A stretch of 64,000 nucleotides of DNA from Arenicellales bacterium. Its GTDB lineage: Bacteria; Pseudomonadota; Gammaproteobacteria; Arenicellales; JAJDZL01. Of the stretch, positions 3,770 through 41,188 are shown one piece after another. The notes beneath the pieces are model-generated. The model saw only the letters and a program-made list of their open reading frames with translations, was not told the origin of the DNA and did not search any database. Location of the stretch: assembly GCA_965200765.1 (NCBI GenBank), contig OZ241380.1, positions 1,170,417-1,234,416 on the forward strand. Reading direction: 5' to 3'. The first letter of the stretch is position 1; each line of letters starts with the position of its first letter. The position numbers were made by a program, and so were the translations under genes.

Positions 3770-3909
3770 AGTAGCAGATCGAAAAATAAACGGTTTTTGC
3801 CAGTGGTCTGGCTTCAACCGTTGCAGTTGGCGTTCGATAACTGATGAATGGTGGTGCACTTTTGGTTGCATAGCGCAGAATTCCAATTCAAGACAGGTGC
3901 TTTACGTTG

Positions 3910-4582: not shown

Positions 4583-4659
4583 AATGACACCTCCGTATCA
4601 ATCCCAAGTGACCTTTTGTATAAATTCTACCACAATCGCGCAAAAATTGAAAATTTTTC

Positions 4660-5207
4660 TCTTGTCTCACTGTGTATCAGACTCAGTTAGCCATTCTTGT
4701 AATCTTTCGCAACCTCAATCTTCACGCCAAACACACGCCAAGGTCGGCCGCACCCCCTATATTCCGTTGCATTCCAATACTATTGAAATTTCACAGAAGT
4801 TGTTTTTTTGGTGAAAGGGGAGATCATTTTGAACAAGGGGGTGTGCGCAGGAACATCTTGTGTATAGGTAGCCGGAGATCGTCCAGTAATTCTGTATTGT
4901 GGGATGTTTGCGAATACATTTTTGTTTTCAGCAAGGGACCCTTCAATCAACAGGTATGAGTTCCTGGACTGGACAAACAACATCTAAACCTTTCCGATTG
5001 ACTGCGCGTAAAGGGCAAGGCATTCGGCTCCATTTCCTCTTCAACCGCCAACTCGACTATTTCACATGTACTTCTACGTGGGAGATGTTGTACCGGACCC
5101 ATTCATGGGTTCAGGAATAACCGCCAAGACAATCGTTTTGACAAGGAGAAAGCATAGCGGCCTATGAGATTGGGCAAGGGCATTTACGGACAATTTACCC
5201 TTGCTGA
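4660..5207 (+). pseudogene. decayed beta-class (PF01555-type) DNA methyltransferase, multiple frameshifts and stops
   Basis: Fragments in three + frames are collinear with the intact methyltransferase at 59815..60693. AKVGRTPYIPLHSNTIEISQKLFF matches VVTSPPYDNMREY..FREISLELL. DVCEYIFVFSKGPFNQ matches SFEYMFVFSKGLPKT. GKAFGS/HFLFNRQL matches GKGHSAS/HPAIFPEKL. VGDVVPDPFMGSGITAKT matches LVYDPFTGSGTTAVM. The AAYEIGQGHLRTIYPC* tail ends at 5207. Confidence 0.6.
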
Positions 5208-7283: not shown

Positions 7284-7649
7284 TCAAATCAGCGTATCAA
7301 TTTTACGCAACACGCCTATCAACTTGGAAAGCTGTTGTGCCGAAATCTTGCCCTTGTCAGTGCCTATCAAGCAGACCGCTACGAACCTTTTGGCAGTAGC
7401 AAAGCAAGCAGGCTCGAAAACCGTCACGTCTGTCGACGAAACTTGCCAACCGCACTGGGCGCACTCATGCAAATGACGGTGCTTCGGTTGCCAGGACTTG
7501 TCGTGACCGCACTTCGGGTTGACCAATCTGTTTTTCCAGAGATGCTGGTTCAATTCTTCCGGACAAGCCGGCCGAGTTGAATACCTCTGTGTCCATTCAA
7601 AATTTCCAGAATTCTGCTGTATTTGAAATTTGCTCGCCAGCATGCTCAA
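7284..7649 (-). pseudogene. IS1595-family (ISXO2-like) transposase, N-terminal fragment (zinc-ribbon/HTH part only)
   Basis: ...NPKCGHDKSWQPKHRHLHECAQCGWQVSSTDVTVFE...KGKISAQQLSKLIGV follows the IS1595 N-terminal layout: C-x2-C ... C-x2-C zinc ribbon, then 'S.T.GT.F', then 'KKGISA.QL.R.LGV'. No DDE domain follows. The fragment is cut at 7171/7172 by the IS right end. Confidence 0.6.
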
Positions 7650-7750
7650 TCACGTGGTTACGATGTATTACAATGCAAACCTTTGCAATAGTGTGCCCAA
7701 TGCAATCCAATTTGGTGCTGCAAATGGAATTTGTCAATCCTGGAGGAACG

Positions 7751-7777
7751 TTCATAGTGAATTGATTTCACTATGAA
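7751..7777. promoter_or_regulatory. perfect palindrome (11-bp arms, 5-nt spacer) followed by T5: operator or weak intrinsic terminator/insulator
   Basis: TTCATAGTGAA-ttgat-TTCACTATGAA, then ATTTTTG. An identical copy sits at 22537-22563. Confidence 0.6.
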
Positions 7778-7789
7778 TTTTTGATTGAT

Positions 7790-7800
7790 GGGGGGGGGGG
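7790..7800 (+). repeat. homopolymeric G11 tract, promoter-proximal (candidate transcriptional phase-variation tract)
   Basis: 11 consecutive G located between TTGATT (7781-7786) and tgaaattcattcaat, about 45 nt upstream of a conserved TATAAT. The same G11 tract is found at 22574-22584. Confidence 0.8.
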
Positions 7801-7821
7801 TGAAATTCATTCAATCGCGAA

Positions 7822-7851
7822 TGAATTTTGCATGCCCGGATGGTTTATAAT
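7822..7851 (+). promoter_or_regulatory. candidate promoter of giant gene 1 (TGAATT-N18-TATAAT)
   Basis: A consensus -10 TATAAT at 7846-7851 is conserved in copy 2 (22630-22635). The -35-like TGAATT (copy 2: TCAATT) is weak. Confidence 0.35.
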
Positions 7852-8013
7852 AATTGATGATTCATTGGTCATTCGAAGCTGGGGTAGTTTCAGTAGTTTG
7901 TTGTAAAAATATTTTCTGGTACAAGTTGATGAAATTGATGTTGAAGCTGATTGGAACAATCGCTTGGCTTTGCAGTCGAAAGTGTTCTGTTGCTTTGGCG
8001 AAAAAATTAGCGA

Positions 8014-8024
8014 GGGGGGGGGGG
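8014..8024 (+). repeat. homopolymeric G11 tract inside the 5' leader/signal-peptide region of giant gene 1 (candidate translational phase-variation tract)
   Basis: 11 G. TAG 8008-8010 closes the giant frame just 5' of the tract. The ATG-initiated leader frame (7857 or 7929) crosses the tract in another frame and stops at 8129. G10 or G13 would fuse leader and giant ORF. Confidence 0.85.
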
Positions 8025-8118
8025 TGCATTCACTTGTATATCCGAAAGCCCAGTTCGCCGGCTCTCACTTGCCAAGCACATTACCTGCTGGCTACTGGTA
8101 GCGACAATATCAATATGC

Positions 8119-11100
8119 ATGCTGCCTGATGCTAATGCGGAAGGACGTGGCTTTACCAGTCCATCGGGAATTAGTGGAACTACAATTGGTGAGGGGCAAT
8201 TCGACACTGGTTCAGTTGCCGCGAAGTTTGTTGTTAAAGATACAGCTGGGTTTTGGAGTGGTTGGCAAAACTCTTATGTTCGGCTCCTAAATGCTCCCTC
8301 TGGTCTCACAATTGTTAATAGCCGAACATACCAGAATTCTACGCTTGGTTGCAATACGGGTAGCCCACGAGAATGTGTTGAAATAGACTTGGGCTGGTCT
8401 GCCACTGCCGATGTCTCATCGGATACAACAGTTACCGTTCAGGTTGTAGGTAATGGGTTTAATGCTGGCAGGCAATTCGGAGCCTGGTTTACCGTAGGCA
8501 CCTTCACGATCAAAGCGGATGTCGAGGAGCTACAGGTAAGCACCCCCACCAGCAGCAGCACGGTCACGGAGGCGGGCAGCAAGTCGGGGTTCACTGTACG
8601 GCTAGGGAAGGCACCGACGGCGAAAGTGACTGTCAATGTCTCTAGCAGCGACACCTCCGAGGGTTCTGTGTCGCCGGGCGAGTTGGTCTTCACGAGCGAC
8701 GACTACAATACTACGCAGTCGGTGACAGTAACGGGTGTCGATGACAGCATATACGACGGCAACAAAACTTGGAACGTGGTGCTAAACCCGTCGTCGACAG
8801 ATACCGGTTACAACGCTTTATCCAACGTGAATGTGGGGATGACCACCACCGACGACGAAGCTGCGCCTACTTTTTCGATCGACTCGCCGAGCGTGACAGA
8901 GGGCGACAGCGGCTCGGTGAATCTGACATTTACGGTTACGCTGAGTGCGGCGAGCGCATTGCAGCACAAGGTGAACTACGCCGATGCGGGCACCGGCACG
9001 GCGACGTCGGGGACCGACTACACGGCGCTTGCCGCCAGCAGCACGCTGACGTTTGCAGCGGGTGAGACGAGCAAGACGATTACGGTGCAGGTGACGGGCG
9101 ATACTGCAGTGGAGGCGAACGAAACGGTGGTGATCAACCTGAGCAATGCGACGGGCGGCGCCGGCATTTCGACGGCGAGCGGCACCGGTACGATCACGGA
9201 CGACGATTTGAAATTTTCGATCGACTCGCCGAGCGTGACGGAAGGCGACAGCGGCTCGGCGAACCTGGTGTTCACGGTGACGCTGAATGCGTCGGTTTCG
9301 ACGCAGCACACGGTTGACTTCGCCGATGCGGGTACGGGCACGGCAACTTCGGGGACCGACTACACGACTATTCCGAACGGCACGCTGACGTTTGCCGCGA
9401 ATGAGACCAGCAAGACGATTACGGTATCGGTGACGGGCGATACGGCGAACGAAGGGAACGAGACGGTTGTGATCTCGCTGAGCAATGCGACGGCCGGTGC
9501 AGGCATCGGAACAGCGAGCGGCACCGGAACAATCATAGACAACGACCTTACATTTTCAATCAACTCGCCGAGCGTGACGGAGGGCGACAGCGGCTCGGTG
9601 AATCTGACGTTCACAGTGACGCTGAGTGCGTCGGTCTCGTCGCCGCAAACGGTCGACTACGCCGATGCAGGAAGCGGCACGGCGACTTCGGGGACCGACT
9701 ACACGACTATTCCGAACGGCACGCTGACGTTTGCGGCGAACGAGACCAGCAAGACGATTGCAGTTTCGGTGACGGGCGACACGTCGAACGAGGGGAACGA
9801 GACGGTGGTGATCGAGCTGAGCAATGCGACAACCAGCATTTCGACGGCGCGCGGCACCGGCACGATAACGGACAACGATCTGGTATTTTCGATCGACTCG
9901 CCGAGCGTGACGGAAGGCGACAGCAGCTCGGTGAATCTGATATTCACAGTGACGCTGAGTGCGTCGGTCTCGTCGACGCACACGGTCGTCTACGCCGATG
10001 CAGGCACCGGTACGGCGACTTCGGGGACCGACTACACGAGCATTTCGGGCGGCACGCTGACATTTGCGGCGAATGAGACCAGCAAGACGATTACAGTATC
10101 GGTGACGGGCGACACGCTGGACGAGGGGACCGGCGAGACCGTGGTGATTTCGCTGAGCAATGCGACGACCGGCATTTCGACCGCGAGCGGCACCGGCACA
10201 ATCACGGACAACGATCCGAAATTTTCGATCAACTCGCCGAGCGTGACTGAAGGCGACGGCAGCTCAGTGAACCTGGTGTTCACAGTGACACTGAGTGCGT
10301 CGAGCACGTCTCAGTACACGGTTGACTATGCCGATGCGGGTAGCGGCACGGCGACTTCAGGGACCGACTACACGTCGGTCACCGGCAGCACGCTGACGTT
10401 TGCACCGGGGGACACGAGCAAGACAATTACGGTATCGGTGACAGGGGACACAATTGGAGAGCCGAGCGAGACAGTGGTGATCGAGCTGAGCAATGCGACG
10501 ACTGGCATTTCGACATCAAGCGGCACCGGTACGATCAGGGACAACGACCTGGTATTTTCGATCGACTCGCCGAGCGTGACGGAAGGCGACAGCGGCTCGG
10601 CGAACCTGGTGTTCACGGTGACGCTGAGTGTGACGAGCGCATCGCAGCACACGGTGGACTACGCCGACGCAGGCACCGGGACAGCGATGTCAGGGACCGA
10701 CTACACGTCAATCTCCGGCGGCACGCTGACGTTTGCACCGGGGGACACGAGCAAGACAGTTGCGGTATCGGTGAGGGGCGATACGCTGAATGAGGGGAAC
10801 GAGACGGTGGTGATTTCGCTGAGCAATGCGACGACTGGCATTTCGACATCAAGCGGCACCGGTACGATCAGGGACAACGACCTGGTGTTTTCGATCGACT
10901 CGCCGAGCGTGACTGAAGGCGACAGCAACTCGGTGAATCTGGTGTTCACCGTGACGCTGAATGCTTCGAGCACGTCGCCGCAAACGGTCGACTACGCCGA
11001 TGCAGGCAGCGGAACAGCGACTTCGGGAACCGACTACGCGTCGGTCACCGGCAGCACGCTGACGTTTGCAGCGAATGAAACCAGCAAGACGATCACGGTA

Positions 11101-14100
11101 TCGGTGACGGGCGATACGGCGAACGAAGGAAACGAGACGGTGGCGATCACGCTGAGCAATGCGTCGACCGGCATTTCAACGGCGAGCGGCACCGGTACGA
11201 TCATCGACAACGACCTGACATTTTCAATCGACTCGCCGAGCGTGACTGAAGGCGACAGCAGCACTGTGAATCTGACATTCACAGTAACGCTGAATGCGTC
11301 CAGCACGTCGCCGCACACGGTGGACTACGCCGATGCCGGGACCGGAACCGCGACTTCGGGGACCGACTACACGGCTGTTACTGCCAACACACTGACGTTT
11401 GCGCCCGGAGTGACGACCCAGACGATTACGGTGTCGGTGACGGGCGACACGGTCGACGAAGGACATGAGACGGTGGCGATCACGCTGAGCAATGCGACGA
11501 CCGGCATTTCGACCGCGAGCGGCACCGGCACGATCACCGACGACGACCCGAAATTCTCGATCAATTCTCCAACCGCGACGGAGGGCGACAGCAGCTCGGT
11601 GAACCTGACGTTTACAGTGACGCTGAGTGCGTCGAGCACGTCGCCGTACACGGTCGACTATGCCGATGCAGGGACCGGGACAGCGACTTCGGGGACTGAC
11701 TACACGGCTGTTACTGCCAGCACGCTGACGTTTGCGGCGGGGGAAACGAGCAAGACAATTACGGTGTCGGTGACGGGCGACACGGCGGACGAGGGAACCG
11801 GCGAGACAGTGGTGATTTCGCTGAGCAATGCATCGTCGGGCACGGCCATTGCGACGGCGAGCGGCACCGGGACCATAACGGACAACGATCCGAAATTCTC
11901 GATCAACTCGCCAACTGCGACAGAAGGCGACAGCAGCTCGGCGAGCCTGGTGTTCACCGTTACGCTGAGTGCTGCGGGTGCGTCGCCGTACACGGTCGAC
12001 TACGCCCAAACGGGCGGCACGGCAACTTCGGGGACCGACTACGCGGCGGTCGCCGCCGACACGCTGACGTTCGCGGCGGGGACCACGAGCCAGACGATCA
12101 CGGTGCCGGTGACCGGCGACACGCTGGACGAGTCGAACGAGACGGTGGTGCTCACGCTGAGCAATGCGTCGTCGGGCACGGCGATTTCGACGGCGACCGG
12201 CACCGGGACCATAACGGACGACGACCCGAAATTCTCGATCGACTCGCCGAGCGTGACTGAAGGCGACAGCGGCCAAGCGAACTTGATCTTCACAGTGACA
12301 CTGAGCGCTTCGAGCACGTCGCAGCTTACAGTCGACTACGCCCAAACGGGCGGCACGGCGACGTCGGGAACCGACTACGCCGCGGTCACCGCCGGCACGC
12401 TGACATTTGCGGCGAGCGAGACGACCAAGACGATTACAGTATTGGCGACGGGCGATACCGCGGACGAGTCGAACGAGACGGTGGCGCTCACACTGAGCAA
12501 TGCATCGGCCGGCACCGGAATCGCGACTTCGACCGGCACGGGCACGATCCGGGACGACGATCCGAAATTTTCGATCAACTCGCCGAGCGTGACAGAGGGA
12601 GACAGCGGCCAAGCGAGCTTGACGTTCACGGTGACACTGAGCGCTTCGAGCACGTCGCAGCTGACGGTGGACTACGCTCAAACAGGCGGCACGGCGACCT
12701 CGGGGACCGACTACACGGCGGTCGCCGGCAGCACGCTGACGTTTCCGGCGAACAGCACGACCCAGACGATTACAGTATTGGTGACAGGCGACACCGCGGA
12801 CGAGTCGAACGAGACGGTGGTGCTCACGCTCAGCAATGCGTCGGCCGGCACCGGAATCGCGACTTCGACCGGCACGGGCACGATCCGGGACGACGACCCG
12901 AAATTCTCGATCAATTCGCCGAGCGTGACAGAGGGAGACAGCGGCCAAGCGAGCTTGACGTTCACGGTGACACTGAGCGCTTCGAGCACCTCGCAGCTGA
13001 CGGTGGACTACGCCCAGACGGGCGGCACGGCGACTTCGGGGACCGACTACGCGGCGGTCACCGCCGACACGCTGACGTTTGCGCCGGGAACCACGACCCG
13101 GACAGTTGCGGTATCGGTAACGGGAGACACGCTGGACGAGTCGAACGAGACGGTGGTGCTCACGCTGAGCAATGCGACGGCCGGCACGGGCATTTCGACG
13201 GCGACCGGCACCGGGACCATAACGGACGACGATCCGAAATTCTCGATCGACTCGCCGAGCGTGACGGAAGGCGACAGCAGCCCGGTGAATCTGGTGTTCA
13301 CCGTGACACTGAGCGCTTCGAGCACGACGCAGCTCACAGTGGACTACGCCCAAACAGGCGGCACCGCGACTTCAGGGACCGACTACACGGCTGTTGCCGC
13401 CAGCACGCTGACGTTTGCACCGGGGGACACGAGCCAAACGATTACGGTGTCGGTAACGGGAGATACGACTGGAGAGGGGAACGAAACGGTGGAGATCACG
13501 CTGAGCAACGCCTCGGCCGGCACGGGAATCGCGACCGCGACCGGCACCGGCACGATCAGGGACAACGACCTGGCATTCTCGATCGACTCGCCGAGCGTGA
13601 CGGAGGGCGACAGCAATTCGGCGAGCCTGGTGTTCACCGTGACGCTGAGTGCGTCGAGCACGTCGCAGCACACGGTCGACTACGCCGATGCAGGAAGCGG
13701 CACGGCGACGTCGGGGACCGACTATGCGTCGATTGCCGGCAGCACGCTGACGTTCGCCGCGGGGGAGACGAGCAAGACCTTCACAGTATCGGTGACGGGC
13801 GATACGCTGAACGAGGGGAACGAGACGATCGTGATTTCGCTGAGCAATGCGACAACCGGCATTGCGACGGCCAGCGGCACCGGGACGATCGTGGACAACG
13901 ATCTGGTGTTTTCGATCGACTCGCCGAGCGTAGCGGAAGGCGACAGCAGTTCGGTGACCATGACGTTCACAGTGACGCTAAGCGCGTCAGCCTCGTCGCC
14001 GCACACGGTGGACTACGCCGACGCAGGTAGCGGGACGGCGACTTCGGGGACCGATTACACGGCAATCGCCGGCGGCACGCTGACGTTTGCGGCGGGGGTC

Positions 14101-17100
14101 ACGAGCAGGACGATTACAGTATCGGTGACGGGCGATACGGCGATCGAGGGGAATGAGACGATCGTGATTTCGCTGAGCAATGCGACGACCGGCATTGCGA
14201 CGGCCAGCGGCACCGGCACGATCAGAGACGACGACCTGGTATTCTCGATCGACTCGCCGAGCGTGACAGAAGGCGACAGCGGCTCGGCGAGCCTGGTGTT
14301 CACCGTTTCGCTGAGTACGGCGAGCGCCTCGCCGCACACGGTTGACTACGCCGACGCAGGCAGCGGGACGGCGAGTTCCGGGACCGACTACACGGCGGTC
14401 GCCGCCGGCACGCTGACGTTCGCGGCGAACGAGACCAGCAGGACAATAACGGTATCGGTGCGGGGCGATACGCTGAACGAAGGGAACGAGACGGTGGTGC
14501 TCACGCTGAGCAATGCGTCGGCGGGCACGGCGATTGCGACGGCCAGCGGCACCGGCACGATCAGAGACGACGATCTGGTATTTTCGATCGACTCGCCGAG
14601 CGTGACCGAAGGCGACAGCGGGTCGGTGAACCTGACGTTCACCGTGACGCTGAATGCGTCGGCCTCGTCGACGCAGACAGTGGACTACGCCGATGCGGGC
14701 ACCGGCACGGCGACGTCGGGGACCGACTACACGGCGGTCGCCGGCGGCACGCTGACGTTTGCGGCGGGCACCACGAGCCAGACGATTGCAGTGTCGGTGA
14801 CGGGCGACACGACTCAGGAGGGGAACGAGACGGTGGTGCTCGAGCTGAGCAATGCGACGACCGGCATTTCGACGGCCAGCGGCACCGGCACGATCACGGA
14901 CAACGATCTGGTATTTTCGATCGACTCGCCGAGCGCGGCGGAAGGCGACAGCGGCTCTGCGAACCTGACATTCACAGTGACGCTGAGTGCGTCGGCGTCG
15001 TCGACGCACACAGTGGACTACGCCCAAACAGGCGGCACGGCGACTTCGGGGACCGACTACACGGCGGTCGCCGGCGGCACGCTGACGTTTGCAGCAGGGG
15101 TCACGACCCAGACGATTGCGGTGTCGGTGACAGGCGATACGGCGGACGAAGGAAACGAGACGGTGGTAATCATGCTGAGCAATGCATCGACCGGCATTTC
15201 GACCGCGAGCGGCACCGGGACGATCACGGACGACGACCCGAAATTCTCGATCAACTCGCCGAGCGTGGCGGAAGGCGACAGCAGCACGGCGAACCTGGAG
15301 TTCACGGTGACACTGAGCGGGACGAGGTCGAGCTCGTCGCCGCTGTCGGTTGACTACGCCAGTTCGGACGGAACGGCGACAGCAGGCACTGACTACACTG
15401 CTGTTTCCGGCACGCTGACGTTTGCGTCGGGTGTGACAAGCCGGACAGTTGCGGTGTCGGTGACGGGCGACACGACGGACGAGTCGAACGAGACGGTGGT
15501 GCTCACGCTGAGCAATGCATCGGCGGGCACGGGGATTTCGACGGCGACCGGCACCGGCACGATCCGGGACGACGACCCGAATTTCTCGATCAACTCGCCG
15601 AGCGTTGTGGAAGGCGACAGCGGGCCGGTGAATCTGGTATTCACCGTTACGCTGAGCGCGTCTGCTTCGTCGCCGTACACGGTCGACTATGCCGATGCGG
15701 GGACCGGGACAGCGACTTCGGGAACCGACTACACAGCAGTCACCGGCAGCACGCTAACGTTTGCGGCGGGGGAAACGAGCAAGACAATTACAGTGTCGGT
15801 GACAGGCGACACAGTGGACGAGTCGAACGAGACGGTGGCGATCACTTTGAGCAATGCGTCGTCGGGCACGGCGATTTCGACGGCGACCGGCACCGGCACG
15901 ATCAGGGACGACGATCCGAAATTCTCGATCAACTCGCCGAGCGTGACGGAAGGCGACAGCAGCTCGGTCAACCTGGTGTTCACGGTGACACTGAGCGCTT
16001 CAAGCACGTCGCAGCTGACGGTCGACTACGCGCAGACGGGCGGCACGGCGACCTCGGGGACCGACTACGCGGCGGTCACCGCCGGCACGCTGACGTTTAC
16101 GCCGGGGACCACAACCCGGACGATTGCGGTGTCGGTGACGGGCGACACCGCGGACGAGTCGAACGAGACGGTGGTGCTCACGCTGAGCAATGCGACGGCG
16201 GGCGCGGGCATTTCGACGGCGACCGGCACCGGGACGATCATGGACGACGATCCGAAATTTTCGATCGGCAATGCGAGCGTGGCGGAGGGCGACAGCGGTT
16301 CGGCGAACCTGGTGTTCACCGTTACGCTGAGTGCTTCAAGCACATCGCAGCTGACGGTCGACTACGCGCAGACGGGCGGCACTGCGACGTCGGGGACCGA
16401 CTACACGGCGGTCGCCGCCGGCACGCTGACGTTTCCGGCGAACAGCACGACCCGGACGATTACGGTGCTGGCGACGGGCGACATGCTGGACGAGGCGAAT
16501 GAGACGGTGGTGCTCACGCTGAGCAATGCGACGTCGGGCGCGGGTATTTCTACAGCGACCGGCACCGGCACGATCCGGGACGACGACCCGAAATTCTCGA
16601 TCAACTCGCCGACGGCGACGGAAGCCGACAGCAATTCGGTGAACCTGGTGTTCACGGTGACACTGAGCGCATCAAGCTCGTCGCAGTTGACGGTGGACTA
16701 CGCTCAGACGGGCGGCACGGCGACGTCGGGAACCGACTACGCAGCGGTCGCCGCCGGCACGCTGACGTTTGCGGCCGGGACGACGAGCCGGACGATCACG
16801 GTATCGGTGACGGGCGACACGGCGAACGAGGTGAACGAGACGGTGATCATCACGCTGAGCAATGCGACGTCCGGCGCGGGCATTGGGACGGCGGTCGGCA
16901 CGGGCACGATCACGGACAACGACACGCCCGGCTTTTCAATCAATTCGCCGAGCGTGGCGGAAGGCGACAGCAGCACGACGAACCTGGTGTTCACAGTGAC
17001 GCTGAGTCCGGCGCCGGCGACTGCGGCGACGGTGAACTGGGCCGAAGGTACCGGGGGCACGGCGACGTCGGGGACCGACTACACCGCGATTGCGGGCGGC

Positions 17101-20100
17101 ACGCTGACGTTTTCGGCGGGGACCGCGACCCGGACGATTACGGTATCAGTGACAGGGGACACGACGCACGAAGCGGACGAGACGGTGGTGATCACGCTGA
17201 GCAATGCGTCGACGGGCACGAACATTTCGACGGCGAGCGGCACCGGCACCATCACCAACGACGATTCAGGCCTTTCGATCGACTCGCCGAGCGTGACGGA
17301 GGGCGACAGCGGGTCGGCGAACCTGGTGTTCACGGTGACGCTGAGTCCGGCGTCGTCGTCGCAGGTGACGGTGAACTACGCCCGCACGGGCGGCACCGCG
17401 ACGTCGGGCACCGACTTCACGGCGCTGGCCGCCAGCACCACGCTGACATTTGCGGCGAACGAAACAAGCAAGACAATCGCGGTGTCGGTGACGGGCGATA
17501 CGATCAACGAGGCGAACGAGACAGTGATTGTCACGCTGAGCAGCGCCTCGGGCGCGGACATCGTGACGGCCAGCGGCACCGGCACGATCACGGACGACGA
17601 CACGCCCAGCTTTTCGATCAACTCGCCGAGCGTGGTGGAGGGCGACAGCAGCACGGCGAACCTGGAGTTCACAGTGACGCTGAGTCCGGCCAGCTACCAG
17701 GCTACGACAGTGGACTATGCGACTGCAACTGCAGGCACAGCGACGGCGGGGACCGACTTCACGGCGATCTCGGCGACCACATTGACGTTTGCGGCGGGGG
17801 ATACGAGCAAGACGTTCATGGTGTCGGTGACGGGCGACACGACTGACGAGGGTGCGGGCGAGACGGTGGTGGCTGCACTGAGCGATGCGACCGGCAATGC
17901 AGAGATCGGGACATCGAGCGGCACCGGCACGATTACGGACGACGACCCGAAATTTTCGATCGGCAATGCGAGCGCGACGGAGGGCGACAGCGGTTCGGTG
18001 AACATGACATTCACAGTGACGCTGAATTCTGCGGGCAATTCGCAGTACACGGTCGACTACGCCAGTACGGACGGCACGGCGACTGCGGGAACCGACTACA
18101 CGGCGGTCTCGGGAACGCTGACGTTTGCGGCGGGGACCACGAGCCGTACATTGACAGTATCGGTGACGGGGGACGCGGCGAACGAGGCGAACGAGACATT
18201 GACGGTCACGCTGAGCAATCCGTCGGTAGGCACGGCGATTGCGACGGCGACCGGCACCGGCACCATCACGGACAACGATACGCCGGGCTTTTCGATCGAC
18301 TCGCCGAGCGTGGCGGAAGGCGACAGCAGCACGACGAGCCTGACGTTCACGGTGACGCTGAGTCCGGCGCCGGCAACCCAGGCGACGGTGAACTGGGCCG
18401 AAGGTACCGGGGGCACGGCGACGTCGGGTACCGACTACACAGCGATTACAGGCGGCACGCTGACGTTTTCGGCGGGGACCGCGACCCAGACGATTACGGT
18501 ATCAGTGACAGGGGACACGTCGCACGAAGCGGACGAGACGGTGGTGCTCACGCTGAGCAATGCGTCGAGCGGCACGAACATCACGACGGCGACCGGCACC
18601 GGCACCATCACCAATGACGATCCGGGCCTTTCGATCGACTCGCCGACGGTGACGGAGGGCGACAGCGGATCGGTGGACCTGGTGTTCACAGTAACGATGA
18701 GCCCGGCATCGTCGTCTCAGGTGACGGTGAACTACGCCCGCAGCGGCGGCACGGCGACGTCGGGAACCGACTTCACGGCGCTGGCCGCCAGCAACACGCT
18801 GACGTTTGCGGCGAACGAGACGAGCAAGACGATCACGGTGTCGGTGACGGGCGACACGGTGAACGAGCCAGACGAGACGGTGATCGTCACGCTGAGCAGC
18901 GCATCGGGTGCGGACATCGTGACAGCCAGCGGCACGGGTACGATCACGGACAACGACACGCCGAACTTCTCAATTGATTCGCCGAGCGTGGCGGAAGGCG
19001 ACAGCAGCACGACGAACCTGACGTTCACGGTGACGCTGAGTCCGGCGAGCTACCAGCCGGTGACAGTGGACTACGCGCAGACCGGCGGCACGGCGACCTC
19101 GGGGACCGACTATACGGCGGTCGCGGCCGGCATGCTGTCGTTTGCAGCAGGTGCTACGAGCCAGACGATCACGGTATCGGTGACGGGCGACACGATGTAC
19201 GAAGCGAGCGAGACGGTGGTGCTCACGCTGAGCAATGCGTCGTCGGGCACGAACATAGCGGCGGCGACTGGCACCGGCACCATCGCCAACGACGACCAGG
19301 GACTGCTGATTGATTCGCCGAGCGTGGTCGAGGGCGACAGCGGTACGGTGAACCTGGCGTTTACGGTGACGCTGGAGCCGGCAGCTGCGACGCAGGTGAC
19401 GGTGAACTATGCGGATGCAGGCGGCGGCACGGCGACCTCGGGGACCGACTACGCGGCAGTCGGCGGCACGCTGACGTTTTCCGCCGGGGAGACGAGCAAG
19501 ACGATTGCGGTATCGGTGACCGGCGACACGGCGGACGAGCCGGACGAGACGGTGGTGATTGCGCTGAGCAATGCGTCGGGCGCGAGCATCGTAACGGCGC
19601 GCGGCACCGGGACGATCGTGGACAACGATGTGCCCGGCTTTTCGATTGATTCGACAAGCGCGGCGGAAGGCGACGACGAGGCGAGCAGCCTGACGTTCAC
19701 GGTGACGCTGAGCCCGGCAAGCTACAGGCAGGTGTCGGTGAACTACGCCGATGCCGGCACCGGCACGGCGACGTCGGGGAGCGACTATGCGGCTTTTGGC
19801 GGCACGCTGACATTCTCGGCAGGGGAGACCAGCAAGACGATTGCAGTGTCGGTGACGGACGATGCGCTGGACGAGCCGGACGAGACGGTGGTGGTTGTGC
19901 TGAGCCATGCGTCGTCGGGCACGAGCATTGCGACGGCGAGCGGCACGGGTACGATCACAGACAACGACATCCCCGGCTTTTCGATCGACTCGCCGAGCGT
20001 TGTGGAAGGCGACAGCGGTTCGACCGTTCTGACGTTCACGGTTTCGCTGAATCCGGCGAGCCATCAGCCGGCCACGGTGCACTACGCCGATGCGGGTACT

Positions 20101-22125: not shown

Positions 22126-22428
22126 GCAGGAAAGAATCAACGCAGAGATATCCAGCGCTTTTGCCGGCAATTTCCGTATACCGCGCACAGCTGTGCAACT
22201 CGCATGTCCAGCACCTGTAGCAAAACTCTATGATCGCACTGGGAGCATGCGTGCAAACGACGGTGCTTCAGTTGCCAGAACTTGTCGTGACCGCACTTGG
22301 GGCGGATGAATCCGTATTTCCAGCGACTCCGGTTCAACTCTTCCAGACAAGCCGGCCGAGTTGAATACCTCTGTGTCCATTCAAAAATTGCCAGAATTCT
22401 GCTGGATTTGAAATTTGCTCGCCAGCAT
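22126..22428 (-). pseudogene. IS1595-family transposase N-terminal fragment, copy 2 (frameshifted)
   Basis: Reverse ATG at 22428 gives MLASKFQIQQNSGNF*. After a frameshift it continues as ..RPKCGHDKFWQLKHRRLHACSQC.. (track ORF 22137..22337). It is homologous to 7284..7649. Confidence 0.6.
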
Positions 22429-22536
22429 TCTCAATCAGGTTGTCAACGTTGCATCACAGTACAAGCCTTTACAATAGGTTGAGGCATGCAGTCCAATTTG
22501 GTGTAGCAAATGGAATATGTCAATCCTGGACGAACG

Positions 22537-22563
22537 TTCATAGTGAATTGATTTCACTATGAA
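22537..22563. promoter_or_regulatory. perfect palindrome, copy 2 (TTCATAGTGAA-ttgat-TTCACTATGAA, then T5)
   Basis: Identical to 7751-7777. Confidence 0.6.
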
Positions 22564-22573
22564 TTTTTGATTA

Positions 22574-22584
22574 GGGGGGGGGGG
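22574..22584 (+). repeat. homopolymeric G11 tract, promoter-proximal, copy 2
   Basis: 11 G. The sequence between TTGATT and the tract is 2 nt shorter here than in copy 1 ('a' versus 'gat'). Confidence 0.8.
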
Positions 22585-22734
22585 TGAAATTCATTCAATC
22601 AAGAATCAATTCTGGTTGCTTGAATGGTTTATAATAATCAATGATTCATTGGTCATTTGAAGCTGGGGTAGTTTCAGTATTTTGTTGCAAAAATATTTTC
22701 AGGTACAAGTTGATGAAATTGATGTTGAAGCTGA

Positions 22735-25700
22735 TTGAACCAATTGCTTGGCTTTGCAGTCGAAAGAGATTTGTTGCATTGGCACATAAAAATAGCGAGG
22801 GGGGGGGGGGGCAAGAATACTTGTATATTCGAAAGCTCTGTTCGCCAGTTTGCGCTTGCCCGGTACATTGCCAGTTCGCTGCTGGTATTGACAATATCAG
22901 TATGCATGCTGTCTGATGCTGATGCGGTTAATCTTGGCTTTAAAAGTCCGTATAGTGGAAATAGTATTTTTGCAGACCAATTAGCCGGCGGCGCGACGTT
23001 TGAGATTCGCGATAATTCACACGGGTTTGACACCCCGAATCTTAATAATTATCGGCTCCAAAATGCTCCCTCTGGCCTCTCAATTTCTAGTGTGACTGTC
23101 GACGCTAGTGACGATGCTCACTTGACTATGAGCTGGACTGGCACCAGCAGAACTGTCGCGATGGATACATTAGTTGCCATTCAAGTCCACAGGAATGGGT
23201 TTATTAGTGGATCAAGCTTAGCCGCTGGCTGGCATGACAGAGGCTCCTTCACAATCAACCCGACGCCCAAGGGGCTTGTCACAAGCACCCCTACCAACAG
23301 CAGCACGGTCACGGAGGCAGGCACCCAGTCGACGTTCACAGTGAGGCTAAGGGCGGCACCGTCGGCCAATGTGACAGTCGCTGTTTCCAGCGGCGACACA
23401 ACCGAGGGCAGTGTGTCGCCGAACACGCTAACCTTCACGACCCAGAACTACGGCACTGCGCAGACGGTGACAGTAACGGGTGCCGATGATAATATACAGG
23501 ACGGCAGCGTGAGCTGGAATGTGGTGCTCAATCCGGCCTCAAGTGGGGACAGCACGTACAACGGCTTGTCCAACGTGAATGTGGCAATGACCACCAGCGA
23601 CGACGAAGGTTCGCCCGCCTTTTCGATCGGTAGTGCGAGCGTGACGGAGGGCGACAGCGGCTCTGCGAACTTGACATTCACGGTTTCGATGAGTCCGGAG
23701 AGCACGTCGCAGTATACGGTGAACTACGCACAGACGGGCGGCACGGCGACTTCGGGGACCGACTACACGGCGGTTACCAGTAGCACGCTTACGTTTGCGG
23801 CGGGGGTGACGACCCAGACAATTACGGTGTCGGTGACGGGGGACGCGGTGGCCGAGGGGAACGAAACGGTGGTGCTCACGCTGAGCAGTGCGTCGACGGG
23901 TTCGACCATCTCGACGGCGACCGGCACTGGCACGATTGTGGACAACGACCTGACATTTTCGATCAATTCGCCGAGCGTGGTCGAGGGCGACAGCAGCTCG
24001 GTGAACCTGGTGTTCACGGTGACACTGAGTGCGTCGAGCACGTCGCAGCATACGGTCGACTACGCGCAGACGGGCGGCACAGCGACTTCGGGGACCGACT
24101 ACACGGCGGTTACTGCCAATACGCTGACGTTTACTGCGGGAACCACGACCCAGACGATCACGGTGTCGGTGACGGGAGACACGGTGGATGAAGCGGACGA
24201 GACGGTGGTGTTCACTTTGAGCAATGCGACGACCGGCATTTCGACAGGAAGCAGCATCGTTACGACGGCGAGCGGCACCGGCACGATAAGGGACGACGAT
24301 CCGAAATTTTCGATCGACTCGCCTACGGTGACGGAAGGCAACAGCAGCTCTGTCAATCTGGTATTCACGGTGACGCTGAGCGCTTCGAGCACGTCGCAGC
24401 TCACGGTCGACTACGCCAGTTCGGACGGCACGGCGACTGCGGGCGCCGACTACACGGCGGTCTCCGGGACACTGACGTTTGCGGCGGGGACCACGAGCCG
24501 TACATTTACAGTTTCGGTGACGGGGGACACGGCGAACGAGGCGAACGAGACATTGACGGTCACGCTGAGCAATCCGTCGGCAGGCACGGGGATTATGACG
24601 GCGACTGGCACCGGCACCATTACGGACAACGACACGCCCGGCTTTTCGATCAACTCGCCGAGCGTGGCGGAAGGCGACAGCAGCACAACGAGCCTGACGT
24701 TCACAGTTTCGCTGAATCCGGCGCCAGCAGCTGCGGCGACGGTGAACTGGGCCGTTACGGGTGGTACGGCGACGTCGGGGACTGACTTCACAGCCACTTC
24801 GGGCGGCATGCTGTCGTTTGCTGCGACTGAAACCAGCAAGACATTTACAGTGACGGTGACCGGCGACACGACGCATGAGGCGGACGAGACTGTAGTGGTC
24901 ACACTGAGCAGTGCGTCAACGGGCACGAACATTGCGACGGCGACCGGCACGGGCACGATCACCAACGATGATCCGGGTCTTTCGATCGACTCGCCGAGCG
25001 TGACGGAAGGCGACAGTGACTCGGTGAACCTAGTGTTCACGGTGACGATGAGTCCGTCATCATCGTCTCAGGTGACGGTGAACTACGCCCGTTCCGGCGG
25101 CACGGCGACCTCGGGCACCGATTTCACGGCGCTTGCCGCCAGCACCACGCTGACGTTTGCGGCGAACGAGACGAGCAAGACGATCACAGTGTCGGTGACG
25201 GGCGATACGGCGAACGAGGCGGACGAGACGGTGATCATCACGCTGAGCAGCGCTTCGGGTGCAGACATCGTGACAGCAAGCGGCACGGGCACGATCACGG
25301 ACAACGACACGCCGAACTTTACGATCGACTCGCCGAGCGTGGTCGAGGGCGACAGCGGTTCGGTGAATCTGGAGTTCACAGTGACACTGAGTCCGGCCAG
25401 CTACCAGCCGGTGACGGTGGACTACGCCCAGACCGGCGGCACGGCGACGTCGGGGACTGATTACACGGCGCTTGCCGCCGGCATGCTGTCATTTGCGGCG
25501 GGCGACACGAGCAAGACGATCACGGTATCGGTGACGGGCGACACGGTGTACGAGGCGAGCGAGACGGTGGTACTGACGCTGAGCAACGCAACGGCGGGCA
25601 CGAATATTGCGACGGCGAGCGGCACCGGCACGATCACCAACGATGATCCGGGCCTTTCGATAGACTCGCCGAGTGTGGTGGAGGGCGACAGCGGCGCGGT

Positions 25701-28464
25701 GAACCTGGCGTTCACGGTGACGCTGGATCCAGCGTCGTCGTCGCAGGTGACGGTGAATTATGCGGATACAGGCGGCGGGACGGCGACCTCGGGGACCGAC
25801 TACGCGGCGATCGGCGGAGGCACCCTGACGTTTTCCGCCGGAGAGACGAGAAAGACAATAGCGGTATCGGTGCGAGGGGACACGGCGGACGAGGCGGACG
25901 AAACGGTGGTGATTGCGCTGAGCAATGCGTCGGGTGCGAGCCTCGTGACGGCGCGCGGCACCGGCACGATCACGGACAACGAAGTGCCTGGCTTTTCGAT
26001 CGACTCGCCGAGCGCGGCGGAAGGCGACAGCGAGTCGACTAGTCTGACGTTCACGGTGACACTGAGTCCGGCGAGCTACAAGCAAGTGTCGGTGAACTAC
26101 GCCGATGCTGGAACCGGCACAGCGACGTCGGGGAGCGACTATGCGGCGATTGGCGGCACGCTGACATTTGCCGCCGGGGAGACCAGCAAGACGATTGCGG
26201 TGTCGGTGACGGATGATGCGCTGGACGAGCCGGACGAGACGGTGGTGATCACACTGAGCGGTGCATCGTCGGGCACGAGCATTGCGGCGGCCAGCGGCAC
26301 CGGCACGATCACGGACAACGACATACCTGGCTTTTCGATCGACTCGCCGAGCGTGGCGGAAGGCGACAGTGGATCGACCAGTCTGACGTTCACGGTTTCG
26401 CTGAGTCCGGCGAGCCATCAGCCGACAACGGTGAACTACGCCGATGCGGGCAGCGGGACGGCAACTTCGGGGACCGACTACGAGACCCTTGCCGGCGGTA
26501 CGTTGCGATTTGCCGCGGGAGAGTCCAGCAAGACGATTGCGGTGTCGGTGACCGGCGACGCGGAGTTCGAACCGGACGAGACGGTGGTGATCGCACTGAG
26601 CAATGCGACGTCGGACGCGAGCATCTCGACGGCGAGCGGCACCGGAACCATTGCGAACGATGACGACACGCCGGTCTTTTCGATCGACTCGCCGAGCGTG
26701 GAGGAGGGCGACACTGATTTGGTCAATCTGACCTTCACGGTGACGCTGACTCCGGCGAGCTACGAGCAGGCGACGGTGAATTATGCAGATGCAGGTACCG
26801 GCACTGCGGAAGCGGGCGAAGACTACAGGTCGATCGCCGGCGGCACGCTGACGTTCGCCGCCGGGGAGACCAGCAAGACGATTGATATATCTGTGATCGG
26901 CGATGTTCTGTCGGAGCAGGACGAGACGGTGGTGCTGGTGCTCAGCAACCCGAACCCGTCGTACACCATAGAGGAGGCCCGCGGCACGGGCACCATCACG
27001 GACAATGATGCGTCGGTGCTGGACGAGGTGGACATGGAGATTGTTGCGGAAGTGGCGCGCGAGGTTACCACCAGCGTGGTGACGGCGGTCAGCAACCGGA
27101 TTGCTTCAGTAGTTGGCGGCGCGGCGATAGCACCGCCGGTCGGTTTGCCGCCGACTGGCGGATTTGCGGACGGCGGCCTGCTTTCGATTCTGGAGCATTC
27201 TGCGCGGCACAGCCGCGAGCGGGAGCGCGGCCTGGAGCGTTCGGAGATGTCGCTGTACCGTTCGCTGGACGGCGCCAGCTTCGTCTACACGCCGAGCGTT
27301 GCCGCTCTGGGTGCGAATAGTTCGGCCGATGCGAGCGGCGGTGGACTTTCCGGCGGTCCGACAGTTTGGGGTTCGGTTGACTATCGAAAATTGTCCGGCG
27401 GCGGTGCGGATGCATTGCAGTGGGACGGCGAACTGGCCTCTGTCAATATTGGCACCGACACGATGGTCGATGCCGGTGTTCTGGTTGGTCTCGCGGCCGG
27501 AATGTCGAAAGGAAGCTTCGGCTATCAGGGCAGCACCGGCGGCACCAGCGGCGTGGTGAAGGTGCGCGTGAAATCGCTGAATCCCTACATTGGCTGGTCG
27601 GTGTCGGAATCGGCGAGCCTGTGGGCGGCGGTCGGCTACGGCAAGGGCAAGGTCAACTACAACGACGGTGCCACCGGAGAAGCCACCAGCAAGATGTCGA
27701 TCGCCAGCGCGGCGCTGGGCGGACGCTATCGGTTGCATTCGAGTGATGGTTCCTCGTGCAACTGCTTGATTCAGGTGGATCTGAAGGGAGATGCCTGGGG
27801 TCTGCAGACCAAGGTTGAAGGTGACGAGCGGCGTCCGATGGGGTCGAAGTCCCGGGCTCACGGGGTGCGCGTTGCGATTGAGAGGCTTCAAAGCAGTGCG
27901 CTTGAATCCGGCGCTTCGCTGACGCTGTCAGGCGAAGCCGGCTTGCGCTGGGACGGCGGCGACGGCGATACTGGCACTGGCATCGAGATGGGCGGCACAG
28001 CGGAATATCGCAACCCGGCAACCCGAATGAAATTGGTGGCGACAGGTCGCGCCTTGCTGGACCATGAAAGCGACCGGAAGGAGTGGGGCGCCGGCGTGAC
28101 GGCAGGGTACCGGCTCGATAGTCGTGAGACCGGACTGACCTACAGATCTTCCCTGTCGCACGGGCAACCGGAAAGCGGGGTTGATTCTCTCTGGGACAGC
28201 CGCGTTGCCAGTCGTGCCTCCGAAGACGGGGAGCTGACGACGCGCCTGGACGCGGAGGTCGGCTATCGATTGTTTGGAGCGAGCGGTCTGCACACGCCGT
28301 ACGTTGGATTCGGAATGGAAGAAGGCAGCAAGCGGGACTATCGCATCGGCATGCGCTATGCCAGCGAATCAGAGCTGTCTTCGGGCCTGGAATTCGAGCG
28401 ACGGGAAGCAGACGGCAAGCAACCCGACCACAGAGTCATGCTGACCGGGCAAATAATTTGGTAG
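22735..28464 (+). CDS. Calx-beta repeat adhesin-like protein with autotransporter-type C-terminal beta-barrel (1909 aa as tracked; the start codon is uncertain)
   Basis: Paralogue of 8119..22125. It has the signal peptide RQFALARYIASSLLVLTISVCMLSDADA|VN, a divergent head (about 22927-23274), 1 degenerate plus 10 canonical Calx-beta units, and a linker and barrel that by eye match gene 1 at roughly nine residues in ten, ending ..RVMLTGQIIW. The tracked start is a TTG directly after a TGA. Confidence 0.9.
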   Translation: MNQLLGFAVERDLLHWHIKIARGGGGKNTCIFESSVRQFALARYIASSLLVLTISVCMLSDADAVNLGFKSPYSGNSIFADQLAGGATFEIRDNSHGFDTPNLNNYRLQNAPSGLSISSVTVDASDDAHLTMSWTGTSRTVAMDTLVAIQVHRNGFISGSSLAAGWHDRGSFTINPTPKGLVTSTPTNSSTVTEAGTQSTFTVRLRAAPSANVTVAVSSGDTTEGSVSPNTLTFTTQNYGTAQTVTVTGADDNIQDGSVSWNVVLNPASSGDSTYNGLSNVNVAMTTSDDEGSPAFSIGSASVTEGDSGSANLTFTVSMSPESTSQYTVNYAQTGGTATSGTDYTAVTSSTLTFAAGVTTQTITVSVTGDAVAEGNETVVLTLSSASTGSTISTATGTGTIVDNDLTFSINSPSVVEGDSSSVNLVFTVTLSASSTSQHTVDYAQTGGTATSGTDYTAVTANTLTFTAGTTTQTITVSVTGDTVDEADETVVFTLSNATTGISTGSSIVTTASGTGTIRDDDPKFSIDSPTVTEGNSSSVNLVFTVTLSASSTSQLTVDYASSDGTATAGADYTAVSGTLTFAAGTTSRTFTVSVTGDTANEANETLTVTLSNPSAGTGIMTATGTGTITDNDTPGFSINSPSVAEGDSSTTSLTFTVSLNPAPAAAATVNWAVTGGTATSGTDFTATSGGMLSFAATETSKTFTVTVTGDTTHEADETVVVTLSSASTGTNIATATGTGTITNDDPGLSIDSPSVTEGDSDSVNLVFTVTMSPSSSSQVTVNYARSGGTATSGTDFTALAASTTLTFAANETSKTITVSVTGDTANEADETVIITLSSASGADIVTASGTGTITDNDTPNFTIDSPSVVEGDSGSVNLEFTVTLSPASYQPVTVDYAQTGGTATSGTDYTALAAGMLSFAAGDTSKTITVSVTGDTVYEASETVVLTLSNATAGTNIATASGTGTITNDDPGLSIDSPSVVEGDSGAVNLAFTVTLDPASSSQVTVNYADTGGGTATSGTDYAAIGGGTLTFSAGETRKTIAVSVRGDTADEADETVVIALSNASGASLVTARGTGTITDNEVPGFSIDSPSAAEGDSESTSLTFTVTLSPASYKQVSVNYADAGTGTATSGSDYAAIGGTLTFAAGETSKTIAVSVTDDALDEPDETVVITLSGASSGTSIAAASGTGTITDNDIPGFSIDSPSVAEGDSGSTSLTFTVSLSPASHQPTTVNYADAGSGTATSGTDYETLAGGTLRFAAGESSKTIAVSVTGDAEFEPDETVVIALSNATSDASISTASGTGTIANDDDTPVFSIDSPSVEEGDTDLVNLTFTVTLTPASYEQATVNYADAGTGTAEAGEDYRSIAGGTLTFAAGETSKTIDISVIGDVLSEQDETVVLVLSNPNPSYTIEEARGTGTITDNDASVLDEVDMEIVAEVAREVTTSVVTAVSNRIASVVGGAAIAPPVGLPPTGGFADGGLLSILEHSARHSRERERGLERSEMSLYRSLDGASFVYTPSVAALGANSSADASGGGLSGGPTVWGSVDYRKLSGGGADALQWDGELASVNIGTDTMVDAGVLVGLAAGMSKGSFGYQGSTGGTSGVVKVRVKSLNPYIGWSVSESASLWAAVGYGKGKVNYNDGATGEATSKMSIASAALGGRYRLHSSDGSSCNCLIQVDLKGDAWGLQTKVEGDERRPMGSKSRAHGVRVAIERLQSSALESGASLTLSGEAGLRWDGGDGDTGTGIEMGGTAEYRNPATRMKLVATGRALLDHESDRKEWGAGVTAGYRLDSRETGLTYRSSLSHGQPESGVDSLWDSRVASRASEDGELTTRLDAEVGYRLFGASGLHTPYVGFGMEEGSKRDYRIGMRYASESELSSGLEFERREADGKQPDHRVMLTGQIIW
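22799..22811 (+). repeat. homopolymeric G13 tract inside the 5' leader of giant gene 2
   Basis: 13 G, encoding RGGGG in the giant frame. The ATG leader frame from 22641 crosses it as EGGGGQ and stops at 22916. G12 or G15 would fuse the two. Confidence 0.85.
23620..27009 (+). repeat. array of 10 tandem Calx-beta-type coding repeats
   Basis: Same unit as in gene 1. Units 3-10 are collinear, unit for unit, with units 28-35 of gene 1. The marker strings appear in the same order: ..YASSDGTATAG.., ..NWA..GG.., LSID..NYARSGG..TDF.., ..SYQPVTVDYAQTGG..GMLSF.., ..NYAD.GGG.., ..SY[RK]QVSVNY..SGSDY.., ..SHQP.TV.Y..DYETLAGGTLRF.., ..EQATVNY..AEAGEDYRS... Confidence 0.9.
27361..28461 (+). other. autotransporter-type outer-membrane beta-barrel domain of giant protein 2
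   Basis: Collinear with 21022..22122, with few substitutions. Confidence 0.7.
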
Positions 28465-38348: not shown

Positions 38349-38485
38349 TGAAGTTGAAATGCGTGTCGGTTCAATCAGGCTGACCTGCAATCGTTCAAAT
38401 AATTGAGTTTCAACTTGATTATGTTGTTACAATGAAATTCGACTATATACAGAGTCAATAAAATATATGAAAAAGGGGGGATAAG

Positions 38486-41085: not shown

Positions 41086-41188
41086 CGGATGGTTGTCAGA
41101 ACTGGTTCCATCGCAACAATATTGGTACGTCAGAGTCGTCAATGGATTCAGCAATAGGGTGTGGAGTTCTAGCATAGAATTTTGAAAT

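Follow-up and report, generated by a model that had tools for sequence, protein, structure and literature searches.

Arrays of β-sandwich domains can pass a type V barrel, as is known from the inverse (type Ve) autotransporters. Poly-G/C contingency tracts lie in surface-protein genes of Campylobacter jejuni, Neisseria and Helicobacter, autotransporter genes included. The Calx-beta and cadherin-like extender domains of the giant adhesin BapP of Pseudoalteromonas tunicata are thought to be rigidified by Ca2+ (PMC12153261), and 'eukaryotic-like' Calx-beta, fn3 and cadherin domains are reported to be enriched in sponge symbionts (PMC11706023). Features of all these systems meet in two tandem giant open reading frames, ORF1 and ORF2, which we analyzed in a 64-kb stretch of DNA (contig OZ241380.1, positions 1,170,417–1,234,416; hereafter the window) from an uncultured bacterium of the Arenicellales. 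With a probability of about 0.65, we read the two genes as paralogues encoding phase-variable, Sec-dependent, outer-membrane-anchored fibre adhesins with an enlarged type V barrel. In the literature we found no description of a Calx-beta array fused to an autotransporter-type anchor, nor any report of phase variation by homopolymers among sponge symbionts or of autotransporters with 18 strands.

ORF1 (8119–22125) is 14.0 kb in length and encodes 4668 residues as called; ORF2 (22735–28464) is 5.7 kb in length and encodes 1909 residues. Both genes and all their features described below are on the forward strand. An earlier reading of the window (the original prediction) had given exactly these coordinates, and its order of modules, i.e. 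signal peptide, variable head, Calx-beta stalk, helix and C-terminal outer-membrane barrel, agrees with ours. In Pfam searches, ORF1 showed 35 stretches of PF03160 above the gathering score (E = 0, 1409 bits) and ORF2 showed 10 (E = 3.9e-140, 460 bits); a hidden Markov model (HMM) built from the repeats of the window found 35 domains at residues 252–4180 of ORF1 and 10 at residues 296–1426 of ORF2. The canonical repeats form the stalks (8872–20658 in ORF1 and 23620–27012 in ORF2), and their starts are spaced 110–117 residues apart. The repeat consensus reads FSI.SPsvtEGDS...FTVTL...TVdYA..gGTATSGTDY...TLTF...T..TitVsVTGDt..E.nETV..LSnA...GTGTI.D.D; the acidic motifs EGD, GD..E..E and D.D, which probably bind Ca2+, are at least 90% conserved across the repeats. 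A profile search matched the calcium-binding domain (CBD) structures of NCX1, which supports the Calx-beta identity. The repeats of ORF1 are 53–90% identical to one another, and repeats 5–10 of ORF2 pair one-to-one with repeats 30–35 of ORF1 at 86–93% identity.

In both proteins the canonical array is preceded by one degenerate Calx-beta-like unit and a head. The head of ORF1 (8140–8538) is about 133 residues in size and its degenerate unit (8539–8871) matches PF03160 with E = 1.3e-3, below the gathering score; head and degenerate unit of ORF2 together occupy 22927–23619. The two degenerate units are 67% identical and reach E values of about 1e-3. The approximately 36 and 11 PF03160 matches expected earlier came to 35 and 10, and the arrangement of a head, one degenerate unit and 35 or 10 canonical repeats is borne out. 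The heads are 33% identical, compared to 92% for the last 480 residues; together with the unequal number of repeats, this describes a variable tip and arrays of differing length on a conserved base and anchor. The N-terminal 300 residues, which hold the heads, matched no Pfam family or known head domain. Within the repeat arrays, Pfam finds only Calx-beta, and the count of the repeats-in-toxin (RTX) motif GGxGxD is zero; in the absence of RTX motifs and of any Pfam RTX domain, the type I secretion system (T1SS) route is excluded. No T1SS, type IX secretion system (T9SS) or lipobox features were seen in ORF1 or ORF2. One Pfam match of ORF1 to SH3_1 was discarded as noise, with no qualifying stretch.

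The stalk of ORF1 is followed by a linker (20659–21021), which contains a helix at about 20686–20760, and by the predicted outer-membrane β-barrel (21022–22125). Linker, helix and barrel of ORF2 lie at 27013–28464, with the barrel beginning at about 27361. The barrel region is ∼365 residues in each protein. ORF1 ends in MLTGQIDW and ORF2 in MLTGQIIW; both thus finish with the terminal aromatic strand that had been described, and all members of the barrel family have an aromatic last residue, mostly Trp or Phe.

For the last 480 residues of the two proteins, there is no Pfam match at E ≤ 1 and no relevant NCBIfam match (TIGRFAMs included) at E ≤ 10; likewise, phmmer and family profiles, one of them of 46 sequences, found no PDB sequence at E ≤ 10 for the barrels. 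A homologue search with the C-terminal 480 residues recovered 22 proteins, with E values of 1e-23 to 1e-54 for those carrying PF03797. Several of the 22 have precomputed PF03797 together with Calx-beta, He_PIG or cadherin domains, and one is titled 'autotransporter domain-containing protein' by NCBI. Matches of PF03797 above its gathering score were obtained for 7 of 23 and then for 36 of 46 family members (best E = 1.7e-13); a second, word-indexed search with the 46-sequence profile yielded one further protein only. Since the homologues match PF03797, the barrels of ORF1 and ORF2 belong to the autotransporter β-domain superfamily, a membership that we regard as established by transitive homology of sequence. 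The autotransporter-translocator-like blocks of the original prediction are not borne out as worded: the C-termini of the window themselves match no model, and the link to PF03797 runs through the homologues only (36 of 46).

In size, the barrel departs from the superfamily. The PF03797 matches always span profile positions 1 to about 204 of 255, none reaches positions 205–255, and about 165 residues are left between the end of the match and the C-terminus; in every homologue, the distance from match start to C-terminus is 360–373 residues. The domain is thus roughly 100 residues longer than a 12-strand barrel needs. AlphaFold2 models, computed with an alignment of 23 sequences, contain 18 β-strands for the last 480 residues (predicted local distance difference test score, pLDDT, 72.5; predicted template-modelling score, pTM, 0.70) and the identical 18 strands for the last 380 residues (pLDDT 79.6, pTM 0.74). 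Strand pLDDT is mostly 80–94, and the turns between strands are short, apart from one longer loop of low confidence. Foldseek searches against the PDB placed the 12-strand β-domain of BrkA among the top matches, but with a poor fit (target and query template-modelling scores, TMt 0.52–0.56 and TMq 0.32–0.38); the best TMq values, about 0.45–0.52, belonged to 22-strand TonB-dependent transporter barrels. On these predictions the barrel is probably enlarged to 18 strands rather than 12, and the 12-stranded barrel foreseen earlier is not what the two AlphaFold2 runs or the fit to BrkA show. A comparison (hhalign) of the family profile with an EstA-like classical autotransporter barrel, encoded at a related locus (L001), was not significant (Prob 0.3%). 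Within the barrel of ORF1, hairpins at residues about 4450–4510 and 4590–4640 (RLRLALEGS..LTPSLE.GLR and RLDAElGYG..LLTPY.G) showed a weak profile similarity that was not significant either (hhalign E = 0.01, Prob 4%); this hint of extra strands by hairpin duplication was not used.

The linker helix (EVDTEIVAEVAREV...; EVDTEIVAEVAREVTTSVVTAVGNRI) is predicted as helical by AlphaFold2, residues 2–26 of the 480-residue query. Outside the barrel, no other element is as well conserved across phyla; its consensus is ..LPEvARAmt.STl.Ai..RI. The helix-like linker stretch pointed out earlier is hence a family-wide feature. About 88 residues, modelled with low confidence, separate it from strand 1, so that it is not an adjacent plug.

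The 5′ ends of the two genes are built alike. A unit of ∼700 bp is duplicated upstream of both (7451–8140 and 22235–22927, 85.5% identity), and the only four G runs of at least 8 nt in the window all lie in these two 5′ regions. In ORF1, poly-G tract 1 (G11, 7790–7800) is located 27 nt 5′ of the −35 hexamer of a sigma-70-like promoter candidate (TTTGCA-16-AATAAT, 7827–7854), proposed from its match to the consensus. It is followed by a leader segment beginning MKLMLKLIGTIAWLCSRKCSVALAKKLAR (7929–8013), by poly-G tract 2 (G11, 8014–8024) and by a signal-peptide segment (8025–8139, ..SPVRRLSLAKHITCWLLVATISICMLPDANA) that lacks a start codon of its own. Like ORF1, ORF2 also has a poly-G tract 1 (G11, 22574–22584), a leader segment beginning MKLMLKLIEPIAWLCSRKRFVALAHKNSE at the conserved ATG (22713–22798), a poly-G tract 2 (G13, 22799–22811) and a signal-peptide segment (22812–22926, ..VRQFALARYIASSLLVLTISVCMLSDADA). 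The conserved leader, MKLMLKLI(G/E)(T/P)IAWLCSRK..., runs from the ATG at 7929 or 22713 into tract 2. Ahead of tract 1, by 12 nt in ORF1 and by 10 nt in ORF2, we observed a 28-nt palindrome with a 12-pair stem, GTTCATAGTGAATTGATTTCACTATGAA (7750–7777 and 22536–22563), which is identical in both copies; it may bind a regulator or terminate transcription arriving from upstream.

As sequenced, ORF1 and ORF2 are both frame-shifted (OFF) relative to the conserved ATG. A length of G10 or G13 in ORF1, and of G12 or G15 in ORF2, would join the leader to the signal peptide. The first Met of ORF1 as called falls within the signal peptide itself, in the hydrophobic core (ITCWLLVATISICM, followed by LPDANA), and there is no ATG, GTG or TTG between the upstream TAG (8008–8010) and this Met. 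The signal peptide of ORF2 is reached only through a frame initiated by the TTG at 22735, which we rejected as the start and consider fortuitous, because that frame is interrupted by stop codons in all paralogues. Each gene encodes a typical n-h-c signal sequence, but neither has an in-frame start ahead of it and the conserved ATG is out of frame in both; the signal peptides of the original prediction are thus not confirmed as worded. The N-terminal regions showed no match to an ESPR-type extended signal peptide. The original prediction made no mention of the poly-G tracts, the frame-shifted genes, the paralogue family or the sponge-associated distribution.

Comparison with further copies bears on the tracts directly. 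The chromosome OZ241916.1, from an Arenicellales metagenome-assembled genome (MAG), contains 13 paralogues with a barrel identity of 47–74%. Their repeats of Calx type number between 2 and at least 29, and their open frames span 980 to more than 3713 residues. Every paralogue whose 5′ end lies in the examined DNA has two poly-G tracts (G10–12), 208–225 bp apart; all but one of the homopolymers of at least 8 nt in 275 kb of paralogue loci belong to such leaders. In all 11 copies, the frame that starts at the leader ATG stays open, and stops interrupt the two remaining frames. This frame continues into the signal peptide in three of the 11 (L004, L006 and L014), while the remaining eight copies are shifted; one-third in frame is the proportion expected of a three-state slipped-strand switch. 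In other phyla, a poly-C tract of 9–23 nt occupies the equivalent place on the coding strand, between an upstream ATG and the signal peptide; it was found in Binatia (L047–L053), Alphaproteobacteria (L021, L022 and L037) and Thalassobaculaceae (L061). Among the Binatia, L048 carries C15 and is in frame, and the near-identical L051 carries C14 and is out of frame. In a Thermodesulfobacteriota homologue (L018), a G10 tract was seen within the barrel-coding region (10221–10230), which may be a second switch type or chance.

The chromosomal locus of ORF1 and ORF2 is present in two further contigs of ENA sample ERZ25070167, with 98.3% and 99.5% identity. Over 450 bp around the start of ORF2, the locus L067, from a 98%-identical sister strain, is identical to the window except for tract 2, G11 compared to G13; tract 2 of ORF1 is G11 in all three sequences, i.e. 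the window and the two sister-strain contigs. Tract 2 of ORF2 thus appears to be polymorphic in length within an otherwise identical stretch, although an assembly error may account for the difference. Tract conservation, length polymorphism and the consequences for the frame can be read from the DNA, and they suggest that expression may be switched ON and OFF. In one sister strain (L073), about 330 bp are inserted between tracts 1 and 2 of the ORF1 orthologue (about 13888–14222), with about 45 bp duplicated, and the orthologue is called at 4582 residues compared to 4668. A 91%-identical relative (L001, 5182–11437) is split into a 1594-residue Calx-beta ORF and a 478-residue barrel ORF and has a second frameshift in the leader; next to it come a classical GDSL-lipase autotransporter (PF00657 and PF03797) and then the suf operon.

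The barrel is not confined to the Arenicellales. When 185,579 species genomes were scanned for the pattern of the barrel alignment, 62 loci were found, many with open frames of at least 3700 residues. We also searched 1.84 billion representative proteins exhaustively with HMMER and obtained 9320 matches at E ≤ 1e-3 and 3738 at E ≤ 1e-30; as the profile holds about 100 passenger positions, the looser counts include some passenger-only matches. Among the best 150 of the 9320 (>320 bits), nearly all aligned through the profile end at the extreme C-terminus of the protein, and lengths reached 7178 residues. ORF1 is therefore large but not extreme. The fusion, for which recurrence in other genomes had been raised as a question, recurs widely; with thousands of relatives, the combination is not the unusual one at the limit of type V systems that it had been taken for. 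In other lineages, the passengers are built from He_PIG, fn3, cadherin, cadherin-like and Calx-beta arrays. Record titles of the carriers include the sponge-specific candidate taxa Ca. Synechococcus spongiarum, Ca. Poriferisocius, Poriferihabitaceae and Ca. Porisulfidus. Other carriers are MAGs of Latescibacterota, Nitrospirales, Binatia, Thermodesulfobacteriota, Gemmatimonadetes, Trueperaceae, Myxococcota and Alphaproteobacteria, for which isolate names suggest a sponge origin. The family thus appears to reside mainly in sponge-associated MAGs.

Based on these observations, we propose the following mechanism, in which surface exposure, type V export, Ca2+ binding, adhesin function and actual switching are what we infer. 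The long leader and the signal peptide would carry the protein across the inner membrane through Sec. The C-terminal barrel, homologous to the autotransporter β-domain and with 18 strands as predicted, would be inserted by the β-barrel assembly machinery (BAM), and the N-terminal passenger would then be passed outward from C- to N-terminus, as in type V secretion. Once outside, the 11 (ORF2) or 36 (ORF1) Calx-beta sandwiches would fold one by one, possibly ratcheted by Ca2+, into a stiff stalk of roughly 50–160 nm (about 4–4.5 nm per domain; about 160 nm for ORF1), at whose tip the variable, presumably Ig-like head could contact host or matrix ligands. Slipped-strand changes in the length of tract 2, between the ATG leader and the signal peptide, would switch translation on or off, and tract 1 beside the promoter might also act; each paralogue would be stochastically ON or OFF.

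Several observations weigh against this proposal. The barrels of the window match no autotransporter model or PDB sequence of their own, even with the 46-sequence profile, and the predicted strand count depends on AlphaFold2 with only 23 sequences; Foldseek found no solved barrel of equal size in the PDB. Reading the sequence before the leader ATG, we saw no convincing Shine-Dalgarno motif. In long-read assemblies, nothing is less reliable than the length of a homopolymer, and no ON allele is seen for the two genes, as the observed lengths of ORF2 (11 and 13) and of ORF1 (11) are all OFF. The shallow alignment leaves room for ordinary type Va autotransporters, in which the 12-strand barrel would merely carry extra loops or an accessory subdomain and the 18 strands would be an AlphaFold artefact. 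The PF03797 matches above gathering score in the homologues and the rank of the BrkA β-domain in Foldseek fit such proteins; however, the same 18 strands came from two independent runs with high strand pLDDT, the template-modelling scores to BrkA are low, and the stretch of 360–373 residues in every homologue, with profile positions 205–255 never matched, is longer than they would need. We therefore consider this explanation unlikely.

ORF1 and ORF2 could also be decaying pseudogenes, in which the poly-G frameshifts would be fixed lesions or errors of sequencing. In favour of this, the conserved ATG is out of frame in both genes, ORF1 has G11 in three assemblies, the 91%-identical relative is split and bears a second leader frameshift, and insertion sequence (IS) elements and their remnants flank the genes. 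Yet frames of 14.0 and 5.7 kb are intact downstream of the tracts, and all paralogues share the two tract positions, with a corresponding coding-strand position occupied in other phyla; one-third of the copies are in frame, matching a three-state switch, and tract length is the sole difference in 450 bp between two strains. On balance, decay seems quite unlikely. It is also conceivable that the barrel serves only as a membrane anchor or pore, with a Calx-beta array that does not pass through it but stays periplasmic or uses another exporter. Surface exposure is deduced, the barrel lacks a direct match to translocator models and the conserved helix is set apart from strand 1, all of which such an arrangement would accommodate. 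With an even number of strands, however, the junction to the passenger faces the periplasm, as it does in type Va; 36 domains in a rigid array would presumably not fit across the periplasm, the passengers of the family are adhesion-type domains (fn3, cadherin, He_PIG and Calx-beta), and features of the other export routes (T1SS, T9SS and lipobox) were not seen. We regard a mere anchor or pore as very unlikely. Taken together, we judge ORF1 and ORF2 to be an undescribed variant of the type V adhesins, phase-variable and with an enlarged barrel. The undescribed adhesin class with a barrel anchor that had been suggested is thus kept in part: the anchor is of autotransporter type in kind, but as a divergent, probably enlarged variant, and the architecture is common.

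A wider view can be put forward more tentatively, at somewhat less than even odds. An autotransporter branch of about 18 strands may be the common outer-membrane anchor of 'eukaryotic-like' fibre proteins (Calx-beta, fn3, cadherin and He_PIG) in sponge-associated bacteria of at least 10 phyla, horizontally shared, multigene (13 copies in one Arenicellales genome) and homopolymer-switched, and may provide a variable surface coat for host recognition or for evasion of sponge phagocytosis and phages. If the proposals are true, an 18-strand, autotransporter-homologous barrel with β-sandwich passengers of 4000–6700 residues would extend the range of type V secretion and offer a natural test case for barrel size versus passenger type. 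The 'eukaryotic-like' adhesion-domain proteins in sponge symbiosis would gain a concrete anchor and export route, and it would suggest that symbionts vary their surface stochastically, as pathogens do.

The two genes lie in an insert of high GC content. GC content at third codon positions (GC3) is 0.72–0.82 in the repeats and barrels of ORF1 and ORF2, compared to 0.38–0.52 in the neighbouring genes; all 13 Arenicellales paralogues (L002–L014) have an ORF GC of 0.56–0.64, with downstream flanks of about 0.45 in most. This contrast could stem from horizontal gene transfer out of high-GC co-symbionts or from GC-biased gene conversion among the copies. At the 5′ border of the insert, an IS4-like DDE transposase gene (5783–7108, forward strand; PF01609, E = 1.6e-7) has a GC3 of 0.73, foreign like the adhesin genes. 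It is followed by the decayed remnant of an IS1595-type zinc-ribbon transposase (7284–7649, reverse strand; PF12760, E = 3e-5), the end of which, from about 7451, lies within the duplicated upstream unit; a second copy is found at about 22224–22434, also on the reverse strand. Copies of the remnant upstream of paralogues in other genomes contain stops and frameshifts, and this decay led us to reject the zinc-ribbon ORF as a divergent regulator. The pattern suggests that the adhesin family spread together with the IS1595 scar.

The region of ORF1 and ORF2 is a hotspot of mobile-element polymorphism. IS content differs among three near-identical strain sequences: the window has the IS4-like DDE element, L072 has an extra DDE_3 IS (11920–13017) that is absent from the window, and L073 has an IS605 OrfB/TnpB-like gene (3415–4695). 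Downstream of ORF2, metabolic genes follow (NUDIX, GATase, aldehyde dehydrogenase, MttB and betaine ABC transport). Among them, a cluster at 35560–43692 encodes an MttB-family methyltransferase, an FAD oxidoreductase, a glycine-betaine-type ABC transporter, a Rieske oxygenase and an OpuAC-type binding protein, and its gene content suggests catabolism of quaternary amines (betaine- or carnitine-like).

Compared to the known systems, ORF1 and ORF2 are closest in layout to type Va autotransporters (PF03797/TIGR01414; BrkA, EspP, AIDA-I and EstA), with which they share the order of passenger, helix-containing linker and C-terminal barrel and a terminal aromatic residue; the Sec signal at the head of this order is encoded, but frame-shifted in both genes. 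Different from type Va, the passenger is a tandem β-sandwich array instead of a β-helix, the barrel is about 365 residues with 18 predicted strands instead of about 270 residues with 12, the helix lies well before strand 1, and the copies in the window fall below all model thresholds. The inverse autotransporters (intimin, invasin and their long Big-domain relatives) also combine Ig-like β-sandwich arrays, a variable tip and an outer-membrane barrel, but their 12-strand barrel is N-terminal, whereas that of ORF1 and ORF2 is C-terminal; no homology to type Ve was detected, including in the N-terminal 300 residues searched against Pfam. Like the RTX adhesins LapA, MpIBP, SiiE and BapP, which are exported by T1SS, the two proteins are large, come from a marine or host-associated setting and have Calx-beta or cadherin-like extenders with acidic inter-domain motifs. 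They differ in having neither RTX repeats nor a C-terminal T1SS signal, and in encoding a Sec signal and their own C-terminal barrel anchor instead; BapP, considered as a relative, was rejected, as it has no barrel anchor.

The 5′ regions, in turn, resemble contingency loci, in which a G or C run of 9–23 nt in the 5′ coding region sets the frame, a second run lies near the promoter and paralogues are in different states. Here, however, the carriers are uncultured sponge-associated bacteria of several phyla, and the tract is placed between a conserved leader and the signal peptide. With the 'eukaryotic-like' proteins of sponge symbionts (PMC11706023), ORF1 and ORF2 share the domain classes and the ecological setting; whereas that literature counts domains, the present family joins them to a shared C-terminal barrel anchor and, as we propose, to homopolymer switching.

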